From contig CAVSDR010000004.1 of the NCBI GenBank assembly GCA_963726745.1, forward strand, positions 128,001 to 192,000: DNA of 64,000 nucleotides, given 5' to 3'. This document shows, piece by piece, positions 949 to 63,240 of this stretch. Each line of letters starts with the position of its first letter. Position 1 is the first letter of the stretch. Position numbers and translations under genes: made by a program. The notes below the pieces were generated by a model. It was not told where the DNA came from. It did no database searches and saw only the letters and a program-made list of their open reading frames with translations. The stretch comes from an uncultured Verrucomicrobiae bacterium. GTDB lineage: Bacteria; Verrucomicrobiota; Verrucomicrobiia; Chthoniobacterales; UBA10450.

Positions 949-3900
949 ATGGTTAGCTCTCTCGGGAGCACAACCCAGCAACCCCTCCTTCCCATGCAAA
1001 CACCCCCCGTGTCTCGCGTCGGCGGCCAGCGTCTCCTTGCTGCCTGCCTCCTCTCCAGCCTGCTCCTCGGCAGCGCCTCGCTCTTCGCCGGTCCAGCGCG
1101 CAGCGCGCCGGATTCCTCCGCCCAAGCCCGCCGCGTCCCGACGCCCGAGGGCAATGTCGGCACGCAGGATGTGGCTGCCTGCTTGAACGCCCCGGTCGTC
1201 GTGGTGACCGATCCCGCGGGCGATCAAGGCGTGGCCAATCCCCCGCAATCCGACATTCTCTCGATCGCCCTCGGAGAGGACTACCGTTACATCGGCTCGC
1301 CGCGGCTAGTGATTGTCCTCAAGGTCGCGAACCTTTCCACCGTCCCGGCGAATGAGTTCTGGCGGGTCCGCTTCACGAACGGCGCGACCACCTACTACGT
1401 CTCGATGATGTCCGACGCGAGCGGCGGAACGAATTTCGAATACGGCACGCAAGCGGGGAACCTCGTCACCACGGTTGGCGGACTGGAGGCGGCATCGTTT
1501 AATGCCGACGGCACCATCACGATGGTGATCGCCCTGAGCAAAATCAGCGCCGGCCCCGGGACCGGACTCACTGCGATCAACGCCGTCACGCAAATGAATG
1601 TCGGTGGCACGCTTTTCCTGGGGCAGGATTCCACCAGCAACGGCACCTACACCGTGGGCAATCAGGCGGCTAGCTGCACGCCCATCCCGCTGCCTACCGG
1701 CGGCACTGCGACCTACCTTAAGGGCGGGATCACCTTCAGCCCCAGCTATGCTTTGCGCGCGCCCTACATCGGGCAGGATGTCGAGCCGAGCATTCGCACG
1801 GATAAGTTTGGCAACACCTACGTCGCCCCGATTCGCGGCGTTCCGGCCGGGACCGACCTCTTCTACTTCGACCTGCGGCCAACCGTCGGCGGCAATCCCA
1901 ACCCGAACTACGATCCCCTCATGCGGAACCCGCAATATCGCGGGCAACCGGACTCGATCACCGGTTCGCAAGACGTGGTCGTGGGCGGAGATGGCGGGGG
2001 CGATGTCGACATGGCGGTCGCCTTTCCGACCGAAGCGGTGGAGAACCCGGCGACGCCGCCAGCCTTGGCCTACAGCAGCCTGGTGCTGGCAAATATCTCG
2101 TCGCAGCGCTCGACCGATCGCGGCGCGACCTTCCTGAAAAATCCCTCGGGCAATGTCACCGGCGGCATTCCCGGGGATGACCGCCAATGGATGGAATTTT
2201 TCGGCAGCCAGTATTGTTACCTGATCTACCGCACGCTCGCGCCCGCCGTCGCGCAGGTGCAGCGCTCGGTCGACATGGGCCTCACTTACGGCAACACCAC
2301 CGTGGTCGGAACCATTGGGCAGGTCGGCGGCGTGGACGTGGATCAAAACGACGGCACGGTTTACCTGAGCGGGAGCAACGGCGTGGTCGCGGTCGGCATT
2401 CCGCCGGTCCCAGGGCCTCCGGGGCCGACCAGCCTTCCGCCGGCGAGTTACACGGTGCACAACGTTGCTGGCACCGGGAACGCGCACCTCTTCTTCACCG
2501 TGAAAGTCGCGAGCGACGGGACGGTTTACGCCTGCTACTCCAACGACCACGACATCTATATTAAGTTCTCGCAGGACAAGGGGAACACTTGGTCGCCTGC
2601 GATCCGCGTGAGCGACGGAATGGAGACTTTGACTGCGGTGTTCCCATGGCTGGAAACTGGGCCTACCCCCGGCACCATCGGCGTCGTCTGGTATGGCAGC
2701 GACAAGGCGACGACCGGCGACGATAGCGCCAACTGGCATGTCTTCTACGCCCTGGGCACCAATGTCCTCACAGCGCCGGTCTTCCGGCAGGCGGAAGCCG
2801 GCGATCATGTGATCCACGGCGCGAATATTTCCGAAGCCGGCTTGGTGGTCGGTGGGATGTCGCCGAATCGCAATCTTGCTGACTACTTCCAGATCTCCTT
2901 CGATCCTACGGGCGCAGCGGTGATCGCTTTTTGCGATGATCACAATGACATCAGCGGCCATACTTACGTGACCCGGCAGATCAGCGGGCCTGGAGTCAAC
3001 AATGGCGCCGCCGTTCCGACACCGGTCGAGGGTAGCGCGCTCCCCGGACCGGCCTATGAGCCGCTCCCGACTGCGGCAAGCGTCGGCGGCATTCCCGGCT
3101 CTCAAGTGACCGATTTCCGGCACGACGTGCGCACCGGCGGCAATCCCCAGACTGGCGGCATCGTCGTTCTGGCAGCGGACGACGCGACCGATATTCTCTC
3201 GGTGCTTTATTCAACCGAAGGGACCAGCGTCGCGCCTGTTTTGGTCGCAACCATGGCTGTCTCCGATCTCACCGCGATCCCCCCAACAACCAACTGGCGC
3301 ATCCATTTTGCCGCTAATGTTCCGGAATCGATCCTGAGTCCCACCGGCGAATACACTTTCGGCATCTCCGATCGGGGCGACCAATTTTACCTCCGTGCGA
3401 GCACCGATAGCGCGGGCGCGCAGACCTTTGTCTACGGCAAGGCGGTGCGGAATTTTGACGGCAGCATCACCTACACGGATCTGGGCGCGGCCGACAGCGG
3501 CGCCTTCGATCAAACCGCCAAGACGATCACCATGAAAGTCGCTGTCAGTAAGCTGAACGCCGCTCTTCCCAGCGGGCACAGCCCGCTGGCTCTCGGATCA
3601 ATCCTCGCCGGCCTGCGCGCGACCACTTACACCACGGCACAAGGCAGTGGCAATAATCGCACCGACACCGCGCGCGGCGGCACCCAATATCCGCTGAGCT
3701 TCCCAGTCCAGCCGGTTAGCGCCGCTTCCGTGAAGTCTCACACCGGCGGGGTGAACTACAGCATCGACCTGCCATTGACGGGCCCGCCGGGAATTGAATG
3801 CCGCCGCGGCGGCAGCACCGGCGACTACACCGTGGTCGTCACCTACCCGGAGAACCTAACGAGTGTAACCGGCGCCAGCGTCACTTCCGGTGTAGGCAAA

Positions 3901-4221
3901 GTCACCAGCGGCGCAGTCGGCAGCGATCCTCATACCTATGTGGTCAACCTCACGGGCGTCACCACCAACCAGGTGGTCAATATCGGGCTGCATAACGTCG
4001 CCGATGCCACCGGCCGCTTTAGCAGCTTGAACACGATCCCGCTGCGCGTCCTTGTAGGCGACACCAACGGCGATGGTTTCGTCAATGCGGGCGACACCAC
4101 GCAGACGCGCGATCGCTCCGGGCAGTTGGTTAGCCCCACGAACTTCCGCTCCGATGTGAACACCGACGGCGTGATCAACAGCGGCGATAGCACGATCGTG
4201 CGGAATAACGCCGGCGGCTAG
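949..4221 (+). CDS. Large secreted protein: sialidase-like/Asp-box propeller region with C-terminal dockerin-like domain
   Basis: Signal-like hydrophobic stretch; Asp boxes (RSTDRGATF, RSVDMGLTY, FSQDKGNTW); C-terminal GDTNGDGFVNAGD and SDVNTDGVINSGD Ca-binding repeats. True start uncertain. Confidence 0.75.
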   Translation: MVSSLGSTTQQPLLPMQTPPVSRVGGQRLLAACLLSSLLLGSASLFAGPARSAPDSSAQARRVPTPEGNVGTQDVAACLNAPVVVVTDPAGDQGVANPPQSDILSIALGEDYRYIGSPRLVIVLKVANLSTVPANEFWRVRFTNGATTYYVSMMSDASGGTNFEYGTQAGNLVTTVGGLEAASFNADGTITMVIALSKISAGPGTGLTAINAVTQMNVGGTLFLGQDSTSNGTYTVGNQAASCTPIPLPTGGTATYLKGGITFSPSYALRAPYIGQDVEPSIRTDKFGNTYVAPIRGVPAGTDLFYFDLRPTVGGNPNPNYDPLMRNPQYRGQPDSITGSQDVVVGGDGGGDVDMAVAFPTEAVENPATPPALAYSSLVLANISSQRSTDRGATFLKNPSGNVTGGIPGDDRQWMEFFGSQYCYLIYRTLAPAVAQVQRSVDMGLTYGNTTVVGTIGQVGGVDVDQNDGTVYLSGSNGVVAVGIPPVPGPPGPTSLPPASYTVHNVAGTGNAHLFFTVKVASDGTVYACYSNDHDIYIKFSQDKGNTWSPAIRVSDGMETLTAVFPWLETGPTPGTIGVVWYGSDKATTGDDSANWHVFYALGTNVLTAPVFRQAEAGDHVIHGANISEAGLVVGGMSPNRNLADYFQISFDPTGAAVIAFCDDHNDISGHTYVTRQISGPGVNNGAAVPTPVEGSALPGPAYEPLPTAASVGGIPGSQVTDFRHDVRTGGNPQTGGIVVLAADDATDILSVLYSTEGTSVAPVLVATMAVSDLTAIPPTTNWRIHFAANVPESILSPTGEYTFGISDRGDQFYLRASTDSAGAQTFVYGKAVRNFDGSITYTDLGAADSGAFDQTAKTITMKVAVSKLNAALPSGHSPLALGSILAGLRATTYTTAQGSGNNRTDTARGGTQYPLSFPVQPVSAASVKSHTGGVNYSIDLPLTGPPGIECRRGGSTGDYTVVVTYPENLTSVTGASVTSGVGKVTSGAVGSDPHTYVVNLTGVTTNQVVNIGLHNVADATGRFSSLNTIPLRVLVGDTNGDGFVNAGDTTQTRDRSGQLVSPTNFRSDVNTDGVINSGDSTIVRNNAGG

Positions 4222-5798
4222 TGCGCTGCGATCGGGCCGACCGGTCGGCGAACCTTCTTGAAGAGCAGCACCAGCGGCGCGCTTAGCAGGCAGGTCAGCG
4301 CGAAGAGCTGGAAGTTCTGCACGTAGCTAACGAGTGCTGCCTGTTGCTGGAGCAGGCCGTAGAGCACCCGCGGCGCCTGTTGCATCGCCTGCCAGTCGCC
4401 GCCGCTCCGGGCCAGCGCGGCGTGCGCCTGTTGCAGGCGCTCCTGCACCAGCGGGTTAAACGGCGACAGGTGCGACGAAAGGATCGCCTGGTTCGCCTGC
4501 GCCCCACGCGCCACCAAGGTCGTGATCATGGCAATGCCAACGCTCCCGCCAACGTTGCGCATGAGATTGAAGATACCGGAAGCGTTCCCGATTTGCTCCT
4601 GCGAGAGCGTCCCCATGGTAGCCGTGGTCAACGGAACGAAGATCAAACTAATCGCCACCCCGCTGATGATGATCGGGATGATGATGCTGCTCATGCCGAT
4701 GTTGAGATTGATTTTCCCAAGCATGAAACAGGCGTAGCCCAGCAGGAGAAAACCGGCCCCGATGAGCATGCGGCTGCTGACTTTGCCGACGAGACGGCCG
4801 ACGATCAAAGTCATGAGCAGAGCCCCGATGCCGCGCGGGCTCATGGCAATGCCGGCTTCAAGCGCGGTGTAGTGCAGCAGGTTTTGCATGAAGAGCGGGA
4901 GGATCGCGGTCGTTCCGTAAAGCAACGCGCCCAGCAGTAGGATCAACGCGGAGCCGACTGCGAAATTGCGATTTCGGAGCACGCGCAGGTCGACGATCGG
5001 GAACTTCGTCTTCAACTCGCGCACGAGGAAGCCGATGAACGCCGCTCCCGAAATCACCGCGCACCAAACGATCGTCCGCGAGCTGAACCAATCGAGCTCC
5101 TGGCCCTTATCGAGCAGGTATTGCAATGTCGCCAGCCAGATGCCGAGCAGGCCGAAGCCGACATAATCGATGTTCGTCGCCGAGATCCGCTTCAAATAAG
5201 CCGGGTCTTCCACGACCGCGTTCGCCATCAGGACCGCGAGCGCGCCGATCGGCAGGTTAATGTAAAAGATCCAGCGCCAGGAATAATTGTCCGTGATCCA
5301 GCCGCCTAAAGTCGGGCCGAGGATCGGCGCCACGACCACGCCCATGGCGAAGACCGCCATCGCCGCGCCCCGTTTTTGCGGCGGGAAACTCTCGAGCAAA
5401 ATAGCCTGCGAAATCGGCTGGAGCGCACCGCCGCCCGCGCCCTGGAGGACGCGCGCGAGGATGAGAAACCCGAGGCTGCCGGCCACCCCGCAGAGCGCCG
5501 AGGCAAAAGTAAACAGCAAGATGCAACCGATGAGGAACCGCTTCCGCCCGAAGAGTTGCCCGAGCCAGTTGGTCGCCGGGAGAATGATCGCATTCGCCAC
5601 CAGGTAGCTGGTTAAAACCCACGTCGCCTCATCGGTCGAGGCCGAGAGATTGCCGGCAATATGCGGCAGCGAAACGTTGGCCACCGAGGTGTCGAGCACC
5701 TCCATGAACGTCGCCAGCATGACCGCGATCGCGATCAGCCAGGGATTGTGCGCCGGAGGCGCCCACGGCGGCGCGGCACTGGAGGCGTTTGCCGCCAT
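4218..5798 (-). CDS. emrB: DHA2 family MFS efflux permease (EmrB/QacA)
   Basis: MEVLDTSVANVSLPHIAGNL, WVLTSYLVAN, WRWIFYINLPIG; about 14 TM segments. Confidence 0.93.
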   Translation of the reverse strand: MAANASSAAPPWAPPAHNPWLIAIAVMLATFMEVLDTSVANVSLPHIAGNLSASTDEATWVLTSYLVANAIILPATNWLGQLFGRKRFLIGCILLFTFASALCGVAGSLGFLILARVLQGAGGGALQPISQAILLESFPPQKRGAAMAVFAMGVVVAPILGPTLGGWITDNYSWRWIFYINLPIGALAVLMANAVVEDPAYLKRISATNIDYVGFGLLGIWLATLQYLLDKGQELDWFSSRTIVWCAVISGAAFIGFLVRELKTKFPIVDLRVLRNRNFAVGSALILLLGALLYGTTAILPLFMQNLLHYTALEAGIAMSPRGIGALLMTLIVGRLVGKVSSRMLIGAGFLLLGYACFMLGKINLNIGMSSIIIPIIISGVAISLIFVPLTTATMGTLSQEQIGNASGIFNLMRNVGGSVGIAMITTLVARGAQANQAILSSHLSPFNPLVQERLQQAHAALARSGGDWQAMQQAPRVLYGLLQQQAALVSYVQNFQLFALTCLLSAPLVLLFKKVRRPVGPIAAH

Positions 5799-7055
5799 TT
5801 AATGCGCACGCCCGACGCGCCCCAACCAAAGACCCGCGCCGATCACCACCGCGGCGATGGCCACAAACGCGATCCCCGCGACCACCAGCACCACACCCAT
5901 CCCGTCGCCTATTTTCACGTCCGGGACCGCAGACATTCCCGGCCCGAGCACACGCCCGATCTCCGGTTGATCGTCGAAGACGATCTTCACCGGCACGCGC
6001 TGGACGACTTTCACGAAATTCCCGGTCGCATTCTCCGCCGGGAGCAAACTAAAACGCGCCCCGCTGCCGGCCTGGATGCTCTCCACGTGCCCGCGAAATT
6101 CCTGCGCCGGGTAGGCGTCGACCGCGATCGTGGCCGGCTGCCCGGCGCGAATGTTCGCGAGTTGCGTTTCTTTGAAATTCGCGGTCACCCAGCGTTGCGG
6201 CGTCACCAGCGCGAGCAGGTTTTGCCCCACTTGCACATAGGCGCCGGCCTCCACCGCTTTTGTGGTCACACGCCCGTCTTCCGGCGCGGTGAGAGTCGCG
6301 TATGACGATTGCAATTCCGCCTGTCGCGCGGCCGCCTCAGCTTCCGTCACTCCGGCCTTCGCCGCGTCCACCTGCACGTGCGCGGCCTCGGCCTGCTTCT
6401 CCGCTTCCTTCAAGAACGCCGCGGCCGCATCCATCTGCTTTTTCTTCGCGCTCAGAGTCGATTGCGAGGCCTCGAGGTCGATCGATGAGTGCTCAAAGTC
6501 CTGCCGCGAGATCGCGCCGCTCGCGATCAGTTCCTGGTTCCGCTGGAGATCGCCGCGCTGCTTCTTTGTGTCCGCCGCAGCCGCATCGGTGCTCGCGCCG
6601 GCCGCTTCGTAACCGGCATGCAGGGTCTGCAGGTGCGCGTCCGCCTGCTCGGCACCGGCGACGGCATTGCGCTCCTTGGCCTTCGCTACCTCGACCGCGG
6701 CGCGGCGTTGCGCGAGCGTCGCCTCCGCATCCGCGGGATCGATCTCCACCAGCGGGTCGCCCCGTTTCACTTCCTGGTTGTCGCCCACCTGCACCGCGGT
6801 CACGCGCCCGGCAATCTTCGGCGCGATCGCAATGATGTGTCCGTCGATGAAAGCGTCGTCTGTCGACTCGTGAGTGAAGGAATGGACGAGCGCAAACGCC
6901 CCGCAAACGATTCCCACCACAAGTAAGGTCGCGGCCACGAGCACAAGCCACGGCCGATGAAACAACGGCACCTTCCCGGCCGGCGCGGGCGTTTCCGCGA
7001 GTGGCCGGCGGTTCTTCTCCGCCGGAGCTTCCACGGTTGTTTCGAGCACGCTCAT
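5799..7055 (-). CDS. emrA: HlyD/EmrA family efflux membrane-fusion protein
   Basis: ESTDDAF, ANFKETQL, GSGARFSLLPAENATGNFVKVVQRVPVKI; ATG overlaps the tetR stop (ATGA). Confidence 0.92.
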   Translation of the reverse strand: MSVLETTVEAPAEKNRRPLAETPAPAGKVPLFHRPWLVLVAATLLVVGIVCGAFALVHSFTHESTDDAFIDGHIIAIAPKIAGRVTAVQVGDNQEVKRGDPLVEIDPADAEATLAQRRAAVEVAKAKERNAVAGAEQADAHLQTLHAGYEAAGASTDAAAADTKKQRGDLQRNQELIASGAISRQDFEHSSIDLEASQSTLSAKKKQMDAAAAFLKEAEKQAEAAHVQVDAAKAGVTEAEAAARQAELQSSYATLTAPEDGRVTTKAVEAGAYVQVGQNLLALVTPQRWVTANFKETQLANIRAGQPATIAVDAYPAQEFRGHVESIQAGSGARFSLLPAENATGNFVKVVQRVPVKIVFDDQPEIGRVLGPGMSAVPDVKIGDGMGVVLVVAGIAFVAIAAVVIGAGLWLGRVGRAH

Positions 7056-7711
7056 TTGGCTTTTCCCTTCACTCCCGCAGTCAATCCGGCGGCGCAAAAT
7101 TCGATCATTCTTCCCAAGGTCTTCTCCACCTCGAGCACGCGACAGCGGCGGCCCGAGGACAACTCCAGCACCCGTCCGTGGGCCACGGTGTGCAGGAAAA
7201 CGCCGTGGGCAAAATGCAGCCGCCAGTGAACTTCATCGCTCGAGAGATACGGCAAGGCGCGTCGGATGGCCGCGTGGAAACGCCGATTTTTTTCCGCGAA
7301 TTCCTCCACCACCAGCGGCTCCAGCAGATCGCCCGGCTCCGATAATATTTGCCCGAGCAAGCGAATGAAAAAGCGGCCGCTCTTCGCCCCGCGCAGCGCC
7401 AACTCGGTCGGCGGGCGAAAGAGCGCCTCGAGAATTTTCTCCACCGGCAGCGCCTGCCCCCCGGCCGCCGCCTCGAAGCGGTCGAGCAGCGCCAGGCGTT
7501 GCGCATTCAACGGCTGCATCCGCCGGCGCAGGACCGCCAGGATAAGCGCATCCTTCGATTCGAAATGGTAGTTCACCGCGCCGAGGTTGGCCGCGGCCGC
7601 GCTCGTGATCGCGCGCAGCGAAGTGGCGCGAAAACCATGGGCTGCGAAGAGGCGCTCGGCTGCGTCGAGCACCGCGCGCTTCGTTTGGGGCTTCTCGCTC
7701 AGGACCGGCAT
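7052..7711 (-). CDS. TetR/AcrR family transcriptional regulator
   Basis: N-terminal HTH LDAAERLFAAHGF...NLGAVNYHFESK; first gene of the efflux operon. Confidence 0.92.
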   Translation of the reverse strand: MPVLSEKPQTKRAVLDAAERLFAAHGFRATSLRAITSAAAANLGAVNYHFESKDALILAVLRRRMQPLNAQRLALLDRFEAAAGGQALPVEKILEALFRPPTELALRGAKSGRFFIRLLGQILSEPGDLLEPLVVEEFAEKNRRFHAAIRRALPYLSSDEVHWRLHFAHGVFLHTVAHGRVLELSSGRRCRVLEVEKTLGRMIEFCAAGLTAGVKGKAK

Positions 7712-7725
7712 CAGGGCGCAGCCTA

Positions 7726-7745
7726 ATTCATACGTTCGTATGAAT
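7726..7745. promoter_or_regulatory. Palindromic operator, likely for the TetR regulator
   Basis: Perfect inverted repeat ATTCATACG-TT-CGTATGAAT about 15 bp upstream of the tetR ATG. Confidence 0.7.
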
Positions 7746-7792
7746 CAAATCCGGCCAAAGCGCCGCCCCGCTGCCTTCGTGCTCCCGCGGCA

Positions 7793-9388
7793 TTAGCCGG
7801 CCGCTTCGCCCGCGCGCACTGTTGCCAGCACTTTCTGCGCGGCGTTATGCCCCGGGATGCCGCTGACCGCCCCGCCCCGGCGCGCGCTCGAGCCGCACAG
7901 GAAAAGATTCCGCCACTCCGTTTCCACGCCCCAGGTGCCCGCTTCCTCCGGCTTTTCCGCAAAGGGAAAGCTGGGCGCATCCTGGAAGATATTCCCGTGG
8001 TAAAGCCCTAACGAGTCCTCCAGGTCGACCGGGCTCTTGCTTTCGAGGCAGAGGCTGCGGTCGCGCGCTTCCGCGAGGCAACTCTCGAGCGGTTCCTCCA
8101 GCCACTGGTCCATGCTCGCGAGGAAGCGCCGTTCCGCCAGCCGCCGCTGGTGGACGTTGTCGCGCGCAAACAGGCTCCAGGGCGTATCCAGCCCGAAGAG
8201 CGTGAGCGTGTGGAAGCCCTGCGCGCGCAGCTCCGGCGAGAGGATGCTGTCGTCCGTGAGCGTGTGGCAATAGACCTCGCCCGGCGGACGCTCCGGCAGG
8301 CGCCCTTTGGCCGCCTGCTCGTAACTCTGGTTCATCTGCTCGTAGCCTTCGTCCGTGTGGAAGGTGCCGCCAAAAGCTTCCTCCGCGGAATAGCCGGCAG
8401 CCTTCAGCTTCGGCAGCCGCCGCAGGAGCATGTTCATCTTGAAGACCGAGCCCTCATCCTCCGCCGCCGGCTGGTAGGGACGGCCGATGAATTTTGCCAG
8501 CACATTGCGGCCGAAGTTTACCAGGAGGAAGCGAGCCTCGACCGTCTGCTGCTGGCCTCGATGGAGGAATTCCACCGCATGCTTCCCGCCATTCACGTGC
8601 AAGCGCTGGAGCGCGATGCTCGTCTCCATCTCCGCGCCCGCCGCGCGCGCGACCCGCTCCAGCTCGCCCGCGACCGCGCCCATCCCGCCGACCGGCACCT
8701 TCCACTCGCCGGTCTTGTTCCCGATCAGGTGATAGAGGAAGCAGCGATTTTGCAGGAGCGAAGGATCGTGCGGATGCGTGAAGACGCCGATCTTCGCGTC
8801 CGTCAGCACCAGTCCGCGGACGAGATCGTCTTGCAGGTAGTGCTCGATCGCGCGCCCGAGCGGTTCCTCCGCCAAAGCTCGCCAGGCGGCGCGCGTTTCG
8901 TCGTTCGCAGCGAAGCGGCGCTCGCAATCCTCCCGCGAAACGAGCGGCTCGAGCAGGCCATCCCAGGTCTGTTCGGCGAAGAGCGCGACCAGCCGGTAAA
9001 AGCGCTTGAGCTGCTCGAACTCGGTCTGGTTGCCGGTGAGCTGATGCATCGAGTGCGCGCTCGCGCTTTCCGAGACGTTGCTCAGGAGCAAACCGGCGTG
9101 TTTGCCGTGACGCACATACGGAGTGAACGATCCGACCGTGCGCCGGCGCAATTCCAGGCGCAGCCCGAGGTCGCGGATGATCTTTTCCGGGAAGAGACTA
9201 ACGAGATACGAATAACGCGAGAGCCAGGCGTCGTAATCGCGGAAAACCTGCTGCGAAGTCGTCGCGCCGCCGAGGTAATCGTTCTTCTCCAGCAACAGCA
9301 CGCTCAAGCCGGCGCGCGCGAGATAAGCCGCGGCGACCAGGCCGTTGTGGCCGGCGCCGAGGATAACGACGTCGTAGTTTGTTCTCAT
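7793..9388 (-). CDS. Phytoene dehydrogenase-like FAD-dependent oxidoreductase
   Basis: YDVVILGAGHNGLVAAAYLA FAD motif, PVGGMGAV, C-terminal GGAVSGIPGHNAA. Confidence 0.88.
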   Translation of the reverse strand: MRTNYDVVILGAGHNGLVAAAYLARAGLSVLLLEKNDYLGGATTSQQVFRDYDAWLSRYSYLVSLFPEKIIRDLGLRLELRRRTVGSFTPYVRHGKHAGLLLSNVSESASAHSMHQLTGNQTEFEQLKRFYRLVALFAEQTWDGLLEPLVSREDCERRFAANDETRAAWRALAEEPLGRAIEHYLQDDLVRGLVLTDAKIGVFTHPHDPSLLQNRCFLYHLIGNKTGEWKVPVGGMGAVAGELERVARAAGAEMETSIALQRLHVNGGKHAVEFLHRGQQQTVEARFLLVNFGRNVLAKFIGRPYQPAAEDEGSVFKMNMLLRRLPKLKAAGYSAEEAFGGTFHTDEGYEQMNQSYEQAAKGRLPERPPGEVYCHTLTDDSILSPELRAQGFHTLTLFGLDTPWSLFARDNVHQRRLAERRFLASMDQWLEEPLESCLAEARDRSLCLESKSPVDLEDSLGLYHGNIFQDAPSFPFAEKPEEAGTWGVETEWRNLFLCGSSARRGGAVSGIPGHNAAQKVLATVRAGEAAG

Positions 9389-9526
9389 GGCCGTGGGAGC
9401 AGCCCACCTGCATACGCAGCGGCGCGCGCCGCGGCCAGAAAAACCCGGACCCGCCGCGGGAATTGACCGCGCGCAGGCGATCTGATATCCCTGCGGTTCG
9501 GCAGCGATATTGAAAAGGAGGTTCCC

Positions 9527-11557: not shown

Positions 11558-11607
11558 GCGCTTTCCCCGCTCGACTTTCGGCCGCGCCTAACGATACCTT
11601 TCGGGAC

Positions 11608-12200: not shown

Positions 12201-12252
12201 ATTCCTCGCCGCGACCGCCTGACTTCCCGCGGAAAACGCGCTATCTCCTCGG

Positions 12253-13293: not shown

Positions 13294-13361
13294 TTAAGCG
13301 CAACCTGCCGTCTTAATTTCAGTTCAATCATCAGCAGCAACCAAAGGAGGAAAGACCAGAT

Positions 13362-51544: not shown

Positions 51545-51552
51545 TATTTTAG

Positions 51553-51585: not shown

Positions 51586-51674
51586 CGTGCTCGTGGTCAA
51601 AATCGGACGCGGTGCTTCGGCGCGCACGACTTTCGCTTTCGCGCGCAGGCAATCCTGCTAACGGTCTCCCAGTC

Positions 51675-53519: not shown

Positions 53520-53534
53520 GCGCAGCGGCGCGGT

Positions 53535-54371: not shown

Positions 54372-54477
54372 GGCGGCAGTCTACGGCCACCGCTGCGGGT
54401 GTCGAAATTTTTCGCGGCGCCGCGCCGGCCAGTTTCCCCTTTCCCGCCGGAGCAACTAAGGCAACTTCTCCGAGCGC

Positions 54478-55329
54478 ATGGCCGAGGCAGAGCACATCGA
54501 TCCCGAGAACGTCCCCATCCCGACCAATCCCGTGGTCGTGGTCCAGGGCGTGGGCGCGCTCGGCCGCAGCTTCCTGCACCAGATCGGGAGCATGTTCTGG
54601 TTCCTGATCAACACGGTCACGGAGACGGCCGACAACGTTCGCCGCGGCCGCGCGCCGTTCCGCGCCTCGAGCTTTTTCCGGCACACCGAACGCGCCGGCG
54701 TCGGCTCGGTGCCGCTGGTCGCGATGGTTTCGTTTTTCCTCGGGCTAACGATGGCGCTGCTAACTGGCTACCAGTTGCAACGTTTCGGCACCGAGCGGCT
54801 GGTGCCGGGGCTGGTGGCGATCGCGTTTACCCGCGAGCTCGGGCCGTTGCTCACCGGGATCATGCTCGCGGCGCGCATCGGTGCGGCTTTCACCGCGGAG
54901 CTCGGGACGATGCAGGTCTCGGAGGAAGTGGAAGCGATCGAGGCCATGGGCATCAGCCCGCTGCGTTTTCTGGTCGCGCCGCGCTTGCTCGCGCTCTTCG
55001 CGCTCATGCCCTGCCTCTCGATCATTTCCAGCCTGGCGGCAATTCTTGCGACCTCGCTGATCTCGCGCGCGTATTTCAACATCGCTTTCGTCTACTTCAA
55101 CGACCTTGTGCTCCACAGCCTGCTCATCCGCGACATCATTACCGGCGTGCTCAAGAGCTTCCTCTTCGGCTTGCTCATCGGCGCGATCGCCTGCTTCCGC
55201 GGCTTGAACGTCAAGGGCGGTGCCGCTGGCGTGGGCAGCTCCACCACCTCGAGCGTGGTCTCGGCGATCACCGCGGTGATCGCGTTCGATACCCTTTTCA
55301 ACGTCGTCTACGTGGTCTTCTTCCCGTGA
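54478..55329 (+). CDS. mlaE: MlaE family ABC permease
   Basis: RELGPLLTG, AELGTM.VSEE..A, GGAAGVG.STT..VV. Confidence 0.93.
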   Translation: MAEAEHIDPENVPIPTNPVVVVQGVGALGRSFLHQIGSMFWFLINTVTETADNVRRGRAPFRASSFFRHTERAGVGSVPLVAMVSFFLGLTMALLTGYQLQRFGTERLVPGLVAIAFTRELGPLLTGIMLAARIGAAFTAELGTMQVSEEVEAIEAMGISPLRFLVAPRLLALFALMPCLSIISSLAAILATSLISRAYFNIAFVYFNDLVLHSLLIRDIITGVLKSFLFGLLIGAIACFRGLNVKGGAAGVGSSTTSSVVSAITAVIAFDTLFNVVYVVFFP

Positions 55330-56129
55330 ACTTGCCGGCTAACGACAACCGCATCCCGCCGATCGTCGAGCTGCGCGACGTGGCGTTGCACTTCGAGAGC
55401 AAACGCGTGCTCGACGGCGTCTCGCTGCGGGTGGAACCGCTCGATCGCCTGGTGGTCATGGGCCAGAGCGGGAGCGGCAAAAGCACCCTCCTGCGCCTGG
55501 TTCTCGGGATTCTCTGGCCGACCAGCGGGCAGATTTTCTTTAAACAATTCGAGGTCTCGCGGCTCTCGCGCCGGAAGCTGCAAAAGATCCGCACGCAGAT
55601 CGGCATGGTCTACCAATACTCCGCGCTCCTGAGCTCGCGGAACGTGCGCGACAACGTCGCCCTCCCGCTCGAGGAATTAACCCGCAAGACCCGCGGCGAG
55701 ATCGAGGAAATCGTCGATGCCAAACTCGACCTCGTGGGCATGAGCGGGGTGAAACACCAGATGCCCTCGGAATTAAGCGGCGGGATGCGCAAACGCATCA
55801 GCCTGGCGCGCGCGCTTGTGATGGAGCCGGAGCTGATTCTCTTCGACGAACCCTCGGCCGGCCTCGACCCGGTGATCAGCTCGGTGATCGACGAGTTGAT
55901 CATCAGCCTGAGCGAGCAATCGAAAGTCACCTCGATCATCGTGACCCACGAGATGGACAGCGCTTTCCGCATTGGCACGAAAATGGCCATGCTTTACCAC
56001 GGCAAGATCATCGAGATGGCCGAGACGGAAGCTTTTAAAAATTCACAAAACCCGGTCGTGCGGCAGTTCCTCAGTGGGAGCACGGAAGGACCGATTCTGG
56101 AAGGAACCCGAGATGCAATTGCGACGTAA
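55326..56129 (+). CDS. mlaF: MlaF family ABC ATPase
   Basis: GQSGSGKST, LSGGMRKR, FDEPSAGLDP; GTG start overlaps the mlaE stop. Confidence 0.93.
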   Translation: MNLPANDNRIPPIVELRDVALHFESKRVLDGVSLRVEPLDRLVVMGQSGSGKSTLLRLVLGILWPTSGQIFFKQFEVSRLSRRKLQKIRTQIGMVYQYSALLSSRNVRDNVALPLEELTRKTRGEIEEIVDAKLDLVGMSGVKHQMPSELSGGMRKRISLARALVMEPELILFDEPSAGLDPVISSVIDELIISLSEQSKVTSIIVTHEMDSAFRIGTKMAMLYHGKIIEMAETEAFKNSQNPVVRQFLSGSTEGPILEGTRDAIAT

Positions 56130-57178
56130 CGAAATCCTCACCGGCCTGCTGGTGCTGGCCACCGTGGCCGTGCTCACCGGCGTGCTCATCCTCCTGGGCG
56201 CGCCTGGCCTGTTCAAACCGCTGGTGAAATACGAGATCTATTTCGACAACGCCGCGGGCATCAAATTGGGCGCGCCGGTGCTCCTCGCGGGCCGCAAGAT
56301 TGGGCAGGTCGAGAGCCTTTACTCGCCGCTCTCGAAGGAGGAGGAAGCGCGCGCCCGCGCCGCGGCCAACCGCGGCCGCATTCCGGTGCAGCCGGCGAAG
56401 GAAGACGGCCAGCCGTCGGAAGCGAAGTTCGAAGCGCGGGTCAACGTGCGCGTCGACAAAAGCGCCGTGGTCTACAAGGACGCGCGCGCGCGCCTGATCA
56501 CGCTTGGCTTGCTGGGCGAAACCGCAGTCGACTTTACCGAAGGCAACATCGACGCCGGGCTGGCGGAGAACGGACAACCCTTTGCGGGCGAACGCGTGCC
56601 CGATTTCGGCGAAGCCATCGCCAAGATGCTCGACATCATCCAGCCCGGTGGCCAAGGAAGCGACCGGCACCTTGAAGGAGCTGCAAACGACCGCGCAAAA
56701 CCTGAGCAAGATCACCGACGAACAGTCGCAGTTAAACATGGCCCTCGCGCAGATGCGCACCTTTGCCGAGAATCTCACCAGCATGACCGCGTCCGACAGC
56801 GCCCTGCAACTCGCGCTCAAGAATGTGGAGACGATCAGCACCAACTTGAGCAAGCTCACGACCGATATCTCGAGCAACAACAACATCGAGATCACGCTGC
56901 AAAACTTCCGCGATTCCTCCGAGAAATTGAAATCGGCGCTGAACGAGCTCACGCCGGATCTGCAGGCCACCGGGACCAACGTGAAGGAACTGACCGACAC
57001 CGTGAAACGCCAGCCGTGGCGGCTCGTGTGGCCCAGCACGAAGGCGTATCCGCAAGACCAGCCGCAAAGCGGCGACACTATCACCGTGCGAAAGTCGACT
57101 CGCTCACGCAGCAGCAGCAAACAGGAAAAACAGCCGGCAAAGCGTGTTCCGCGCGGAGTGCTCTACCAGGGCGAATAG
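56113..57178 (+). CDS. mlaD: MlaD/MCE protein (frameshift near 56645)
   Basis: TM, FDNAAGIKLGAPV..AG..IGQV; the coiled-coil tail and PWRLVW are in another frame. Confidence 0.85.
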
Positions 57179-57187
57179 TCAGCAAGC

Positions 57188-58306
57188 TCAGGCCGCTTTT
57201 TGCGCACTGCTCAGGCGTTCCTCGAGGAAATTCATCACCGCGACTTCGACGCTCCGCAGGTCCGGTGCGTTCTGCGCCAGCGCCTGGTCGGCCTTGCGCT
57301 TGAGCCCCTCGATCGTCCCGCCACGCAGGTAATTCTCGAAGATCTCCGGGTGCACGTAGCACTTCCGGCACACTGCCGGGGTGTTACCCAGCACTTTCGC
57401 CACCGCGGCCACGGCTTGCTTGATGTTCTTTTTCGCGGCCGCCTTCGTTTCGGACGCTTCGAGCGCGTTCAAGGCCACCGCCGCGAGCACCGTGCCCGCC
57501 CAGGTGCGAAAATCCTTCGCGGTAAATTCGCCGCCGGCGATCTCGCGCAGGTAGTCGTTCACGTCCTGCGAATCGATGTGCCGCGCCTCGCCCTCGTCGT
57601 CCACGTAGCCGAAAAGCTCCTGGCCCGGGAGCTCCTGCGCTTTCTTTACGATCCGCGCGAGCCGGCGGTCAGCCAGTTCCATCTGGTGGGTCACGCCGCT
57701 CTTGCCGCGAAACTTGAACGTCACTTTCGCGCCCTTCACGGCGGCGTGCTTGTTCCGCATGGTCGTTAGGCCATAGGACTTGTTTTCGCGCGCATACTCT
57801 TCGTTGCCGATGCGGATGAAGGTGCGCTCCATAATCGAGACGATCGTCGCGAGAACCTTGTTTTTCGGCAGGCCGGGCAACTCCAGGTCGGCCTGAACTC
57901 GCCGTCTAATTTTTGGGAGCGCCGCGCCGAACGCGAGCATCTTGTCGTATTTCGATTCGTCGCGCTGCTGGCGGAATTTCTCGTGATAGCGGTATTGCTT
58001 CCGCCCGCGGGCGTCGCGACCGGTGGCCTGGAGGTGGCCGTTAGGCGACGGGCAAATCCAGACGTCGGTGTAAGCCGGAGGCACCGCCAGCCGGCGACAC
58101 CGCAGAACCTTTCCTTCGTCGGTAATCAGCTTGCCGTGGGTGTCGTAAAATTCCCAGTCGTCGCCCTTTTTCTTGCGAGTGTAACCGGGGTGATCGTCGC
58201 TCACATAACGCAGCCCGGCTTCCTCCGCGGCCGCCTCCGGATCGAGGACCACACCCTCGAGCGACCCCGCTTTTCCATTCCCGTTCGCCGACCCTTTTCC
58301 AGCCAT
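57188..58306 (-). CDS. Bacterial DNA topoisomerase IB
   Basis: HLQATGRDARGRKQYRYH, RIGN, FRGKSG, KDFRTW, LGNTPAVCRKCYVHP. Confidence 0.95.
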   Translation of the reverse strand: MAGKGSANGNGKAGSLEGVVLDPEAAAEEAGLRYVSDDHPGYTRKKKGDDWEFYDTHGKLITDEGKVLRCRRLAVPPAYTDVWICPSPNGHLQATGRDARGRKQYRYHEKFRQQRDESKYDKMLAFGAALPKIRRRVQADLELPGLPKNKVLATIVSIMERTFIRIGNEEYARENKSYGLTTMRNKHAAVKGAKVTFKFRGKSGVTHQMELADRRLARIVKKAQELPGQELFGYVDDEGEARHIDSQDVNDYLREIAGGEFTAKDFRTWAGTVLAAVALNALEASETKAAAKKNIKQAVAAVAKVLGNTPAVCRKCYVHPEIFENYLRGGTIEGLKRKADQALAQNAPDLRSVEVAVMNFLEERLSSAQKAA

Positions 58307-58375
58307 GAAAACAGATACGTGCGCAACCGGCGAAAAGGCTGCACTGCGCTTCCTGAGCGCCTCGCTTGCCCCGAG

Positions 58376-58816
58376 CTACGCGCCGTAGCTCTTGGTGAAT
58401 TTCTTGCGCGACTCGCCTTCGCTTGGGGAAGGCGCGGCCGGATCGCTCGCGCTTGGAGACGGCGCGTTCTCGGCGGGCGCGGAAGATTTCGGAGCCTCGC
58501 TGGAGCTGGAGGGAGCTGGGCGGCTGCCGCCTTTCTGCTCCTGCGAAACCTCCACGAAGACCATTTGCAAATTAGCCAGCGCATTGCGCAGGACGGTGGC
58601 CTCTTCGTTGCTCAAGTTGCCGCGGGTCTTTTCCTGAATCATCGCCAGCTGATCGATGAACATCTTCGCGAACTCGAGGTTCACCTCGCCCTCGCCGGTC
58701 TGCGGGTTCGGGATTTGCCCGAGGAAAAGGGCCGCGTTCTGCGCGTGCATCATCACGAATTCGATGAAGCGCTGCGCCATCTCGCCGCTTTGGGTGGTGG
58801 TTTGAACTTCGGCCAT
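58376..58816 (-). CDS. DUF1844 family protein
   Basis: LFLGQIPNPQTG...AKMFIDQL.MIQEKTRGNL..EE. Confidence 0.85.
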   Translation of the reverse strand: MAEVQTTTQSGEMAQRFIEFVMMHAQNAALFLGQIPNPQTGEGEVNLEFAKMFIDQLAMIQEKTRGNLSNEEATVLRNALANLQMVFVEVSQEQKGGSRPAPSSSSEAPKSSAPAENAPSPSASDPAAPSPSEGESRKKFTKSYGA

Positions 58817-58817
58817 A

Positions 58818-61404
58818 TTAGTTTTCTCCCTGCGTCTGCGGCCGCACGGTCGCGAGGACATACGGTTGCGCAAAATATTTCGCGGCCACACGCCGCACCT
58901 CCGCGGCCGTGACCGCCTCGACTTCCGCTTCCAGCTTTCGGTAATGATCAAACCCGATCCCGTAGAGCTCATCAAGCGCGCTCATGTAGCCGAGGCTGTC
59001 ATTGCTTTGATTTGAGATCTGCTGCTGGCCGATGAGTTTTTTCTTCGCGCGGACGAGTTCTTCATCAGTCAGGCCCTCGCGCGCGAGCTGGCCGATCTCC
59101 TCGAGCAGGGCCTGCTTCACGGCCGGGACTTTCTGCGGATCGGTCCCTAAATAGAAGGCAAACATGCCAGGCACCAGTCCCTGCAATTGCGTGGAGCCGA
59201 CGTAATAAGCCAGCCCCATCTCCTCACGGATGCGGATGAAAAAACGCGAGCCCAGGTCGCTGCTCGCTTCATCGATCAACTCGAGCGCTGCGCGGTCCGG
59301 GCTGAACATGTCCGCGCTGCGGAAGCCCACCATGAGCACCGCCTGCTCCTTCTCGCGCAAGCTGCCAACTTCCGCCATGGCGGCGATCGGCCTGCTCGCA
59401 GCTACCTGCTCGAGCGCGAGCGCGCCCGGGCGCATCGTCGCGAGAACTTGCTCGAAAAGCTCCCGCACTTCCGCCGCTTTCACATTGCCGAAGACCGAGA
59501 GCACACCGTTCCGCGCGACCACATGGCGATCGCGAAAGGCGACCAACTCTGTGCGCGCGAGCTTTTGCACCGCCTCAGCAGAACCCTTCCCGCGCAAGGA
59601 ATAGGGATGGTCCCGGAAGAGCGCCTGCGCGCACGAGATTGCGCGCGACCGCAGTGAGGTGTTCCTCCTCTTCCTTAATGAGCGCGAGCTGCACTTCCCT
59701 TTCGCGCACGATCGCTTCCTCCGGGAAGTTCGCGTTCAGGAGAACATCGGCGAGTAATTCGCCGGCCTGGCGGAGATCGGGCTGGGTGACCTCGAGAGAA
59801 ATGCAGAAGCTGTTGTTGCCGGAATCGCTTCCCAAGTGGCCGCCTATTTCCTCGACCTCGTTGGCAATTTGCTCGGCCGTGCGCGTGGTCGTGCCCTTGA
59901 GCAGCACCTTCGCCATCAGGCGCGTGATTCCATTCGTCTCCGGCGTTTCCGCGAGCAGTCCGCCGCGGAAAACCGCGGTCATCGAAACCAGCGGCAGGCG
60001 CGCATCCTCCCGCACGAGCAGGCGCAGGCCGTTGCTCAACTCCAGCTTTTGAATCTCGCCCGCGGTGATCGTTTTTCCCGGCGAGATTGGTGCCGCGAAC
60101 GCCGCCTTCGGGTTGAGCGAAATGACCGTGAGATTGCCCGGGGTGAGATACTGCCGGGCGACGCGCTGGATGTCCTCCGCGGTCACCTGCTGCACGTCCT
60201 CGAGGTAGTCGCGGGTGAAATTGAGATTGCGCGTGAGGAACCAGCTCGAGCCGAGATCGGAGGCCTGCCCGCGCATCGTCGTGAGCGTGGCGAGGTGCTG
60301 GCTGAGCGACATCTTGCGCGCTTTTTTCAACTCCGCCGCGGTCACACCACTTTCCTGGATTTCCGCGACAATCTGCAGGATCAACGCCTGCGCCTCGATC
60401 CGCTTTTCCGGTTCGGTGGCCGCATCGATCCCGAGCAAGCCCGCGTAGCCCGGCGTGTAGGAATAAGCGGAAACGCCGTAAGCCAGGCCTGCTTCTTCAC
60501 GCACCCGGCGGTAGAGCCGTGAACTGCGGCCATCACCCAGGATGGTGGACAAAAGATCGAGCGCGGGGACGTCGGGATGCGTCAGCTCCGGCACATGCCA
60601 GGCTAACGAGAGCCGGGTCAGCTCGGTGTTAAATTCCTGGTGAACCTCACGCGTCCCGAGCTGGATCGGCTCCTCGGGAATGAAGAGCGGCGGCAGGGAG
60701 CGCGCTGGGTATTCCGCAAAAAATTCCTCGAGCTGCGCGCGCACTGCTCGCGTATCGACATCGCCCACGATCACAAAGGTGAGATTGTTCGGCACGTAGC
60801 GCCGGCGGTAATAGGCGACCACTTGTTCCTGCGTGAGCTGGTTGAAGAGATCGAGCCAGCCGATCACCGGCAGCCGATAAGGATGCCGTTGGTAAGCGGT
60901 CGCGAAAAGTAGCTGCCCGGCCATGCGATCGGGATCGTCAAAGCCCATCGCAAACTCGCGCCGGATGACTTCCTGCTCCTTATCGTATTCCTCCTTCGGC
61001 AGGGTGGAATTCATCATCGCGTCGGCTAAAACGTCGATCGCCTCCGGCACGCCGGCTTTCGGCACATCGATCCAATACACCGTGCGGTCGAACGAAGTGT
61101 AGGCGTTGATGTAGCCGCCCACGTCCTGCACCGCCTGCGCGATTTCATTCGCGCCGCGCCGCTTCGTTCCCTTGAAAAGCATGTGCTCCAGGATGTGCGA
61201 AAGCCCCGCTCCGAGCTGCTCGCCCTCGTCGATGCTGCCGGTGCCGCACCACGCCTGCACGCTCGCGACGGGCGCGCTGTGGTCCTCCTGCACGATGATC
61301 GTAAGCCCGTTGACCAGGGTCCATTGCTCCGCGGAATTCGGCGGGAAAGTGATCGCCGCGCCTTGCGTGGGCGGAATGGTTTTCAGCTGAGCCGTCTCGT
61401 GCAT
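58818..61404 (-). CDS. M16 (pitrilysin-like) zinc protease (frameshift near 59630)
   Basis: GLSHILEHMLFKGT, INAYTSFD, SRLY..VRE..GLAY; the second half continues LFRDHPYSLRGKG in another frame. Confidence 0.9.
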
Positions 61405-61442
61405 ATCGATGGAAAATGGCGCCAGCCGGGGCGCGGGCCGCA

Positions 61443-61881
61443 TCATGAGGCCTTTGGCGCGGGCAGCGCCGGCGGCACGGTTTTCGAGGCGGGCCTCGCC
61501 TCGGGCGCGAATGGCTTCACGAAGACTTCGTCGAAATCGTAGACATCCTTGAAGTCCTCGATCGAGTCCTCCTCGGTCTTCCCGAAAATGCCGGCGCCGA
61601 TGAGATTGAAGACCATGTGGCCGATGTCCTCGGAGCTGCGGATGCCCCAGTAGCTGAAGACCGTGGTCACCATCGGGCCGAATTCCTTGAGCGCGTATTG
61701 CCGCACGCCCTTCGAGCAACTCCGGGCCAGCCACGTGCCGCACCGCGCCTCCCTTGATCTTCTTCTGCTGCTTCGTGGTGTAATCCAGCGAGTCGCGCAG
61801 GAAGACGTAGGCCGCATGCGCATAGCGCGGATCACTGGCGGTGATAAGATCGAGAGCTTCGGCGAATCCAATTTTCTGCAT
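61443..61881 (-). CDS. Planctomycete/Verrucomicrobia conserved protein (Minf_1886-like; frameshift near 61710)
   Basis: DPRY...AYVFLRDSLDYT...HVAGPELLEG, then VRQYALKEFGPM...WGIRSSEDIGHMVFNLI...DSIEDF. Confidence 0.85.
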
Positions 61882-61944
61882 GGGCGTGCGTCCTGAGAGG
61901 CGCCTATGATACGCGTCCCGCGTGTTTCGGGCAACTGTCGCGCG

Positions 61945-63240
61945 CTAGAACTGCGACTCGAGCGCGTCGAGATAAACCGAGATCGCGTCGCGCCGCCGCA
62001 CCTGCCGTTCCTCCGCCGCCTCGGCTGCATGGTGATAGGCCTGGAAACTTCCGCTAAAGCTGCGCGTTTGTGTCGCCTCGTGCCAGTTCAGGTAATCCGC
62101 GATCGCGCTCATCCGCCGCACGATTTGCTCGCGGCGCGAGCGCAATTCCGCAAGGCGAGCCGGGAGGCGTTTGGGCTTTTTTTGGCGCGCGATCTCGCTG
62201 GCTATTTTCGCATACTCCGCCAGCACCGGGACAAAGAGCGGATTCGCGCGGCCGGAGAGGAGCAACAACTCGTCGACTAAATTCGACAGCGCTTTCGGCG
62301 CCGCCGGCAAGCCGGCGAATTTCGGGAATTCCTCGAGCGCGTAGCTTGCGATCGGCTTCTCGCCTTCGCGCAAATCCACTCGCAAAACCCGGAGCAATTC
62401 TCGCTCGGTCTCCTCGCAACTGAGCAGCCGATAGCGCTCGCTCGCCGCCGCCCGCGCGACCGCCAGCGCCCAGTGCTTGCGCATCGCTTCGAGATCCGCG
62501 CCTAACGAGGGAAAGTGCGCCCGCAGCTCGGCCAGCGGATCGTTTCCCGCCTGCGGCAAGTCGCCCAGATAACGCGCGAGCGCCGCCGGGCCGCCGGGCG
62601 CATCGCTGAGCAAGGTGACCAGCGCCGCGGCGTAGGCGCGATAGAGCGCACGCGACGGCGAGTCGAGCAGCTCCGGGCGTTGCCGGAGAAAATCCGCCAG
62701 CGGCAGGATGTTTCCCGAGGCCACCGGGACCGTGAGCGCGTCGGCTATTTTCCCGGAATCGTGCCCCGGCGCGAGCGCGAGCGTCCCCTCGAGGAGCCAA
62801 TCCGGCGGCTCGACATAAGCCGTGCCCGGCGGCGTGTCGGGCGCGGCGCGATACATCATCTCGAGAAAAATTGCGCGCAGGATCTCGCGTTCCACCACCG
62901 GCCCGGTGAGGTCCGCCACCAGGCTCAGGTCGAGTTGCAGTTTCAACCCAAAGCCGGTTTGGCTGAAGCTGAGCTGCGCCCGCGGAACATCCGGCAGATT
63001 TGCTTGCGGCAATTGCGCGTTGATCAGGATGGGCGTTTTCCAGGCATCGTTCTCGCCGAGCAAGCGCAGCGCGGCCGCCTTCGTCCGCTCCGCCAAATCG
63101 CAAACCGCGCCGCGCAAACGCGCATCGGGACCGTAGACGATGAACTGCCGGGAAACGCTGTAGCTCCGCGGCACCGGCGTGCTTTCGGCGTGGGTGATCG
63201 CCACCAGGAGAAGAAAAGCGATGAGCAGACGACAGTTCAT
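61945..63240 (-). CDS. Secreted hypothetical protein
   Basis: Signal peptide, SRQFIVYG, PDWLLEG, RRDAISVYLD tail. Confidence 0.75.
   Translation of the reverse strand: MNCRLLIAFLLLVAITHAESTPVPRSYSVSRQFIVYGPDARLRGAVCDLAERTKAAALRLLGENDAWKTPILINAQLPQANLPDVPRAQLSFSQTGFGLKLQLDLSLVADLTGPVVEREILRAIFLEMMYRAAPDTPPGTAYVEPPDWLLEGTLALAPGHDSGKIADALTVPVASGNILPLADFLRQRPELLDSPSRALYRAYAAALVTLLSDAPGGPAALARYLGDLPQAGNDPLAELRAHFPSLGADLEAMRKHWALAVARAAASERYRLLSCEETERELLRVLRVDLREGEKPIASYALEEFPKFAGLPAAPKALSNLVDELLLLSGRANPLFVPVLAEYAKIASEIARQKKPKRLPARLAELRSRREQIVRRMSAIADYLNWHEATQTRSFSGSFQAYHHAAEAAEERQVRRRDAISVYLDALESQF

Follow-up and report, generated by a model that had tools for sequence, protein, structure and literature searches.

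In a 64,000-nucleotide stretch of DNA (the window), part of contig C4 of the 3.41-Mb, seven-contig genome of an uncultured Verrucomicrobiae bacterium of the Chthoniobacterales, GTDB family UBA10450 (G000), a short non-palindromic word, GCCTAACRA(G), is strongly over-represented. I call it M1 and describe with it two further words, M2 (SAWNKYGYYGNCTAAW), in the same genome, and M3 (AAGATCGACA), in relatives from other genera. Strong, ongoing selection or drive keeps each of the three at hundreds to more than 1000 copies per Mb, in both orientations and wherever coding permits. M1 is real, larger than first reported in a sequence-only reading of the window, and undescribed as far as I have searched, and its mechanism is unproven. 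The presence of M2 in the window, the restriction of M1 to one family and the avoidance of each word by itself go beyond that reading.

Abundance and maintenance of M1

Genes were predicted in this analysis (3199 in G000, 87% coding). The genome contains 1293 copies of the M1 octamer and 2025 of CTAACGA, about 380 octamers and 590 7-mers per Mb, and the enrichment extends to all seven contigs (240-506 octamers per Mb). This spread over the genome was one of the checks set beforehand as refuting tests, and the enrichment also survives the other, synonymous shuffling: 335 sense and 713 antisense octamers are found in coding sequences, versus 23.1 ± 4.9 and 24.5 ± 3.9 in 20 within-gene shuffles, which is 14 to 29 times the shuffled level.

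The octamer of the sequence-only reading is thus enriched, yet it is not the true unit. This is a strict core, CTAACRA, with G,C preferred before it and G,W,N,N,W after it (consensus with flanks, GCCTAACGAGWNNW). Under a masked periodic Markov model the core is all-or-none, with 973 copies of GCCTAACGA versus 2.2 expected, and the sole tolerated core change is G8>A (103 versus 1.0 expected). Single mismatches are over-represented at this change and at the flanking positions, not at other positions of the core. Silent options are close to saturation: TTA is used in 448 of 496 TCG-Leu-GGC contexts (24 of 1477 control contexts), and CCT in 219 of 269 G-CCN-AAC-GA contexts (33 of 901). A silent one-off of M1, GCCTAATGA, has no copies in G000 against 1312 of the motif, so the maintenance of M1 must be current and strong. 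The shuffles, the saturation of silent sites, the absent silent neighbour and the distance-dependent occupancy described below strongly support the earlier proposal of a selected chromosome-wide DNA signal.

M1 leaves its mark on genes and proteins. It provides the stop codon of 327 of the 3199 genes (about 10%), and the tripeptides PNE and SLG are 2.7 and 1.65 times as frequent as in shuffled proteins. Across 164 alignments to 22 loci from relatives, G000 has 155 aligned sites and the relatives have 106; 23 of the 155 are shared. At the unshared, lineage-specific sites, residue identity to the relatives is 48-50%, versus 69% overall. These few shared sites and low identities suggest, therefore, that M1 sites appear and disappear at permissive positions, often with a change of the amino acid. 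A proteome footprint and placement at variable residues are likewise found for uptake sequences (PMC2817400).

Along the genome, M1 occurs at 0.61 per kb inside genes and 0.62-1.04 per kb between them, with a maximum at stop codons. Low GC marks most of the longest stretches that lack M1 and M2: 20 of the 25 longest lie below 0.625, versus 0.636 overall. M1 falls to 0.33 per kb in the lowest octile of third-position GC (GC3), versus 0.51-0.61 in the others. Low GC serves here as a proxy for recently acquired DNA, and the DNA uptake sequence (DUS) is similarly scarce in recently acquired genes (PMC2397512, in the part available).

A second and a third word

M2 was found with a mixture model, which gives about 2600 weighted sites in G000, roughly 100-fold above shuffles. 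It spans 16 bases with graded positions and has only G-N-C-T-A-A in common with M1. Its distribution is patchy, with the strict pattern in four of 221 family genomes from two genera (1056 copies in G000, 213 in G051, 77 in G011 and 59 in G015) and at most 26 copies in each of the other 217. G051 carries a variant, or dialect, of M2, GAKCGCGYYGNCTAW; the dialect and the presence of M2 in a second genus both come from this single unpublished genome. At 14 places in G000, M2 copies form head-to-head overlapping dyads joined at their AT-rich ends.

M3, first noticed in loci of relatives, contains both GATC and TCGA. It reaches at least 100 copies per Mb in 50 of the 221 family genomes, with a maximum of 4653 copies; G000, with 22, is at background level. 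The reversed control of M3, with CTAG inside it, is close to zero, and the lows within the family therefore serve as the baseline. In two M1-poor loci (L009, L013), CGATCACGA and CACGAGCAC are over-represented, which could reflect a fourth word or a local repeat.

Spacing between copies

Copies of the same word keep apart. In G000, the density of M1-M1 pairs relative to baseline is 0.3-0.4 below 100 bp, 0.53 at 100-200 bp and 0.66 at 200-300 bp, and it is normal from 400 bp; M2-M2 pairs show a similar short-range dip, and control words are trendless. With protein context held fixed and genes of GC3 up to 0.75 left out, encodable M1 sites are filled in 85 of 242 cases (35%) when another M1 lies within 200 bp, versus 638 of 990 (64%) when it lies at 400-2000 bp (P = 2e-16). 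An M2 close by leaves this occupancy undiminished (63% versus 53%). In 141 kb rich in M1 and M3 (six stretches of G070 and locus L014), 86 M3-M3 pairs lie at 30-300 bp versus 126 expected, and 29 M1-M1 pairs below 400 bp versus 51 expected. Within about 300 bp, each word shuns further copies of itself and is indifferent to the other words. This spacing implies maintenance by selection or drive whose returns diminish, with the words acting independently of one another. For the Pasteurellaceae uptake signal sequence (USS), two copies within 100 bp are described, in the part of the source available, as bringing no extra uptake (PMC7811141).

Sites in the window

All 27 octamer positions of the sequence-only reading are exact, with CTAACGAG at 17 and CTCGTTAG at 10, and its expectation of about 1.3 compares with 1.24 under an order-3 Markov model of the window, although the GC content it had used, 65%, is measured at 63.4%. 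The ten or so further 7-mers it mentioned are exactly ten copies of CTAACGA/TCGTTAG, giving 37 M1 copies, of which 33 lie within or at the stop of a called gene and 4 are intergenic. The peptides DSLG, NSLG, YSLG and LTS are confirmed; PNE/PND/ANE is a third frequent reading frame, not named earlier. Of the stop codons ascribed to the motif, those at 52809 (GT2, converging with carA) and 53535 (SPFH) hold, and another is found at 47854; the supposed rpe/gspE overlap does not, as by the present gene calls rpe ends at 39383 and the copy at 39425 supplies the gspE stop alone. The M1 copies, followed by M2, are:

3856..3863, + strand, octamer; dockerin-ending secreted protein gene, N-LTS-V
4327..4334, + strand, octamer; antisense to efflux transporter gene, LVS
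8008..8015, + strand, octamer; antisense frame DSLG
9198..9205, + strand, octamer; antisense frame LVS
9775..9782, - strand, octamer; frame NSLG
11588..11594, + strand, 7-mer; intergenic
12322..12329, + strand, octamer; frame GLTS
13029..13036, - strand, octamer; frame DSLG
17295..17301, - strand, 7-mer; dnaG, AND, also an M2 hybrid
17708..17715, - strand, octamer; dnaG, PNE
17811..17817, - strand, 7-mer; dnaG, PNE
21614..21621, - strand, octamer; stop of a doubtful short open reading frame
22186..22193, - strand, octamer; intergenic
23058..23065, - strand, octamer; intergenic
23669..23676, + strand, octamer; frame NLTS
24882..24889, - strand, octamer; intergenic
28000..28007, + strand, octamer; antisense frame HSLA
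37676..37683, + strand, octamer; M14 peptidase gene, GLTS
38943..38949, + strand, 7-mer; frame GLTK
39425..39432, - strand, octamer; stop codon of GspE/PilB-type ATPase gene
43153..43160, + strand, octamer; secretin (GspD-like) gene, YSLV
44247..44254, + strand, octamer; FSLG, not present at the aligned place in 9 of 9 relatives aligned there
44855..44861, - strand, 7-mer; PAND, M2 hybrid
46721..46727, - strand, 7-mer; VPND
47854..47860, + strand, 7-mer; provides a TAA stop
49776..49783, - strand, octamer; YSLG
50207..50214, + strand, octamer; ANE, M2 hybrid
50739..50746, - strand, octamer; DSLG at a variable position, M2 hybrid
51044..51051, + strand, octamer; TNE, M2 hybrid
52063..52070, + strand, octamer; carA-like gene, CLTS, retained at this position in 6 of the 16 relatives aligned
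52809..52816, + strand, octamer; converging stops of carA-like and GT2 genes
53535..53542, + strand, octamer; TAG stop of SPFH gene
54745..54751, + strand, 7-mer; GLTM
55339..55345, + strand, 7-mer; PAND, M2 hybrid
57763..57769, - strand, 7-mer; topoisomerase IB gene, GLTT
60603..60610, + strand, octamer; LSLA
62502..62509, + strand, octamer; PSLG
360..62750, both strands, M2 (A-N4-GYYG-N-CTAW; consensus SAWNKYGYYGGCTAAWW); 44 matches, 28 on + and 16 on -
M2, + strand, first A at 360, 5296, 5899, 10374, 12187, 13758, 13930, 17094, 22935, 23085, 24719, 28080, 28211, 29315, 31532, 43497, 45099, 48029, 50197, 51034, 52751, 55329, 57896, 59834, 61016, 62192, 62267, 62735
M2, - strand, at 7806, 8403, 17311, 18389, 21111, 26512, 26722, 33077, 36822, 44871, 48977, 49718, 50756, 57188, 58585, 60824

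Distribution in the family

The PheS protein of G000 is 75-92% identical to that of Chthoniobacterales/Spartobacteria genomes (76% to a Ca. Udaeobacter record, which presumably belongs to the same family) and about 55-71% identical to that of other Verrucomicrobiota. In 213 of the 221 family genomes M1 is more frequent than its reversed control, three-fold in 152 of them, and it reaches at least 200 copies per Mb in 54, with a range of 13 to 4633 copies. Where at least 500 copies are present, the forward fraction is 0.475-0.527. Outside the family, 147 genomes of the class contain 0-15 copies. These tallies take in the unpublished genomes G001, G034, G047, G051, G165, G196 and G220 (G008 in some other comparisons), and as the family genomes are kin and not independent, they are descriptive.

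Within the family, the density of M1 varies 300-fold, with near loss in G067, and neither M1 nor M3 reaches 100 copies per Mb in 83 of the 221 genomes. The silent neighbour GCCTAATGA has only 0-42 copies in all 221, and the motif-poor genomes therefore do not resemble decaying relics. An apparent own word of G067 turned out to be a local repeat, and none was found in 300 kb of this genome. In search of viral mimicry, two paired-motif scans, a weak test, picked out 18 contigs; each has 2-5 copies and none is clearly rich. Among soil sequencing runs, only two have 7-9% of the words, and the contigs from them belong mostly to other organisms.

Comparison with known systems

In the parts of the sources available, no more than two families have described uptake sequences (bioRxiv 10.1101/2025.10.24.684340, PMC7811141). 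Both consist of host-associated bacteria. Like the DUS of the Neisseriaceae, read by ComP, and the USS of the Pasteurellaceae, for which ComN/PpdA is the predicted reader, M1 is a family-restricted, non-palindromic word of 9-10 bp that occurs about once per kb in both orientations (PMC2397512, PMC2817400, PMC3630211, PMC7811141, PMC12616744); the USS spacing of about 1 kb is similar to the density of M1 (PMC7811141). Shared features are also the thousands of dispersed copies above codon-aware expectation, the lack of a replication-orientation bias, the permissive coding positions, the tripeptide footprint, the scarcity in acquired DNA, the dialects between lineages (the M2 variant of G051) and the presence of competence genes. 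Unlike DUS and USS, the new words are unrelated in sequence to either and known from sequence alone, form no terminator hairpin pairs and, for M1, show no enrichment of core one-offs apart from G8>A, and in G000 two unrelated words coexist independently without a ComP above cut-off. The GYYG-N-CTRA of M2 recalls the layout of the DUS, but the CTG core that the DUS requires is not enriched in G000 (GYYGNCTGAA occurs 64 times in coding sequences versus 68 in the shuffle). The words are best not filed as members of DUS or USS, although they work most like them.

The cyanobacterial HIP1 (GCGATCGC) is likewise hyper-abundant, lineage-wide, intragenic and under selection. It is a palindrome with two cognate methylases, whereas M1-M3 are asymmetric, have no cognate methylase that I could find, and show short-range avoidance as their spacing signal. 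The literature search, with most subscription papers and all supplements outside its coverage, turned up neither an account of the words nor a report of uptake sequences for the lineage, and no parallel for several independently acting words in one genome.

Explanations

Of the four functions offered by the sequence-only reading, uptake is the best fit, yet it is unproven. From the combined analyses I give an even chance to M1, M2 and M3 being uptake-sequence-like signals, driven by natural transformation through a biased transfer of motif-bearing DNA. The words would be recognized in sequence-specific steps of uptake or recombination, as with the Neisseria DUS and Haemophilus USS; a word would raise the chance that its fragment is taken up or recombined, and word-bearing alleles would in this way replace wordless ones. 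The range of about 300 bp could result from short fragments or short tracts, and since different words do not seem to substitute for each other, they may gate separate, multiplying steps instead of being alternative receptors. A more elaborate form, which I put forward tentatively and regard as somewhat unlikely, is a code for kin DNA that evolved independently of the Neisseriaceae and Pasteurellaceae: an ancestral M1, with M2 and M3 gained by sub-lineages and each word with its own reader at a multiplying checkpoint acting on short fragments, the combination of words defining who exchanges DNA in the soil.

Candidate machinery for transformation is present. G000 encodes ComEC, DprA, ComM-like and ComF-like proteins (the last below the curated cut-off), two PilT-family ATPases and 19 prepilin-type matches, and ComEC is found in 209 of the 221 family genomes. 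The ComEA-like protein of the family is a fusion of a secretion signal peptide, a staphylococcal-nuclease (SNase) domain and a helix-hairpin-helix (HhH) domain (L082-L111). It occurs in 44 of the 54 genomes with at least 200 M1 per Mb versus 73 of the 167 others, a difference confounded by clade.

Several observations weigh against an uptake function. ComEC is equally common in motif-poor genomes and hence does not discriminate; the SNase-HhH protein is present in only 10 of 40 genomes with at least 200 M3 per Mb, and in G000 its gene is split, the SNase gene and the HhH stub lying on different contigs (C4:17150-17922, C2:230127-230438). This split may be real or an assembly error, as frameshifts are visible elsewhere in the assembly. 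ComP_DUS (PF16732) in G000 stays below cut-off. Two cassettes of DUF7305 PilX-like minor pilins have no full-length match in the M1-rich genomes G013, G042, G044 and G045, and both are present in the M2-poor G002. No pilin tracks M2 when 18 pilin heads of G000 are compared with the fetched loci of G051, G011, G015, G013 and G044, a comparison of 30 loci plus further regions that form part of 80 matches. In 242 kb of the 2.3 Mb of G051, no gene is unusually identical to G000. These comparisons thus brought no receptor to light, although one unrelated to ComP or ComN is conceivable. Core one-offs other than G8>A are near background when pooled (258 versus 220 expected), unlike the one-off variants of the uptake sequences called DUES, which are reported to be over-represented (PMC1939737, in the part available). 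About half of the DUES sit in terminators according to the available part of bioRxiv 10.1101/2025.10.24.684340; inverted terminator pairs of M1 do not form a class in G000, where 10 pairs closer than 25 bp make up 0.32 of expectation. The different words do not repel each other either, with an M1-M2 pair density of 1.0-1.26 in G000 and 189 M1-M3 pairs below 400 bp versus 192 expected in the 141 kb of G070 and L014. Alternative receptors should give such cross-repulsion, and the words therefore cannot be alternative keys to one gate. In 391 kb of G091, the densest M1 genome, the dip is limited to about 50-150 bp, with an excess below 30 bp in all orientations, and no self-avoidance of M3 is seen in the 101 sites of G077, which give low power.

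Some further loci deserve mention in their own right. A Verru_Chthon pilin cassette (G000:C3:1029966-1034730, L154) lies within a 6.9-kb low-GC stretch without M1 or the M2 pattern, which suggests exchange or diversification of the pilus tip. A frameshifted prepilin-type gene (G000:C4:322912-324391, L341) combines a pilin head with an EF-hand-like stretch and a long extension, and the pilin loci retrieved from five relatives contain no counterpart. In the window, an 87-amino-acid membrane protein without a Pfam match (11937-12200) is encoded beside a KTSC-domain gene; its start resembles what I take to be the anchor of ComEA-type proteins.

Alternatively, each word could be the site of an abundant cytoplasmic protein that organises the nucleoid, loads repair factors or marks strands and acts over a few hundred bases, with selection spacing the sites evenly and a separate protein for each word. 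I consider this a strong rival, though unlikely on balance; the nucleoid-protein option of the sequence-only reading, widened to repair proteins, is still a live candidate. The independence of the three words follows from it without extra assumptions, more simply than from uptake, and strand neutrality, a sharp core with graded flanks and the missing terminator pairs fit as well. In large soil populations, a tiny benefit per site could give the observed odds. A role in chromosome structure was proposed for HIP1 (PMC5861425), whose function is debated between this and DNA uptake in the available parts of PMC5861425 and PMC13756078. However, no origin or terminus bias or other regional pattern is seen in 50-kb bins along the contigs, the 300-fold range of density, the near loss in G067 and the patchy gain of M2 fit poorly, and no such protein has been identified.

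A modification mark seems improbable. The words would then be marks of self, methylated or otherwise modified, that a defence or uptake system recognises, on the model of HIP1 or the asymmetric sites of the BREX type. The all-or-none core is enzyme-like, and its only tolerated change, G>A, equals C>T on the opposite strand; M3 contains GATC and TCGA; and an orphan N6/N4 methylase (G000:C3:981251-982042, L157), 67-78% identical across the family, occurs in 204 of the 221 family genomes and 4 of the 147 outside. But this methylase is also present in G067, where M1 is nearly lost, and in four outside genomes with 3-13 M1 copies. A phage homologue, 48% identical, adjoins a gene for R.RsaI, the site of which I take to be GTAC. 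From this homology the orphan is probably specific for GTAC, possibly as a domesticated GTAC methylase. M1 does not contain GTAC, a sequence strongly avoided in G000 (ratio 0.16). A site of 16 graded bases, as in M2, is moreover unlike that of a methylase. The methylase option of the sequence-only reading thus lacks a matching enzyme. Other candidates were rejected: the avoidance of GTAC itself is widespread in loci of the class and unrelated to the motif, a 5-methylcytosine methylase is located in a contig end that is low in GC and lacks the motif, two type I M genes are at contig ends, and a Dam-like family considered for M3 is present in 3 of 5 genomes tested and was not found in the two M3-richest.

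A functionless, sequence-specific repair or mutation ratchet that makes the word site by site is very improbable. Some transition neighbours of M1 are indeed scarce (GCCCAACGA occurs 7 times versus 17.9, and CCC in 1 of 50 non-motif G-CCN-AAC-GA contexts), but the pooled core one-offs are not depleted, and a site-autonomous process cannot link occupancy to the distance of the next copy, as a locally saturating benefit or drive can; this largely refutes it. A polar signal for a recombination or translocation motor, like Chi (RecBCD/AddAB) or the FtsK-orienting polar sequence (KOPS), could be suspected from an over-represented, asymmetric, genome-wide octamer but is hardly credible. Chi and KOPS are polarised by replichore, and on replichores assigned from GC skew and the KOPS word GGGNAGGG M1 is unpolarised (949 leading to 989 lagging, 49%, P = 0.38), as is M2 (1040 to 1060); the KOPS word as positive control gives 249 to 65 (79% leading). 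GCCTAAC/GTTAGGC presumably resembles the attC of integrons; this likeness is ruled out, as the sites are single, unpaired and inside genes.

If the uptake reading is true, these words would be a third, independent case of uptake sequences, in a large family of soil Verrucomicrobia, and self-biased exchange of DNA would shape free-living genomes too. Whatever the mechanism, the words end about one in ten genes of G000, account for much of its use of rare codons, tell native from acquired DNA and give signatures at the level of family and genus. The mosaic of gain and loss over 221 genomes makes the search for the proteins that read them a direct problem of phylogenetic profiling.

Other features of the window

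Near the 3' end of a gene for a CSLREA/choice-of-anchor Q protein (18634-20640, - strand), two tandem arrays of 6 bp, with 13 and 16 copies, lie at 18656-18852; they encode NA and TP/DS-type dipeptide linkers, and the same hexamer arrays recur genome-wide. A 6S RNA (Rfam RF00013) is located at 51365-51546, between the pheT-like and carA-like genes, and a gene for a bacterial topoisomerase IB (PF01028, PF21338) at 57188-58252.

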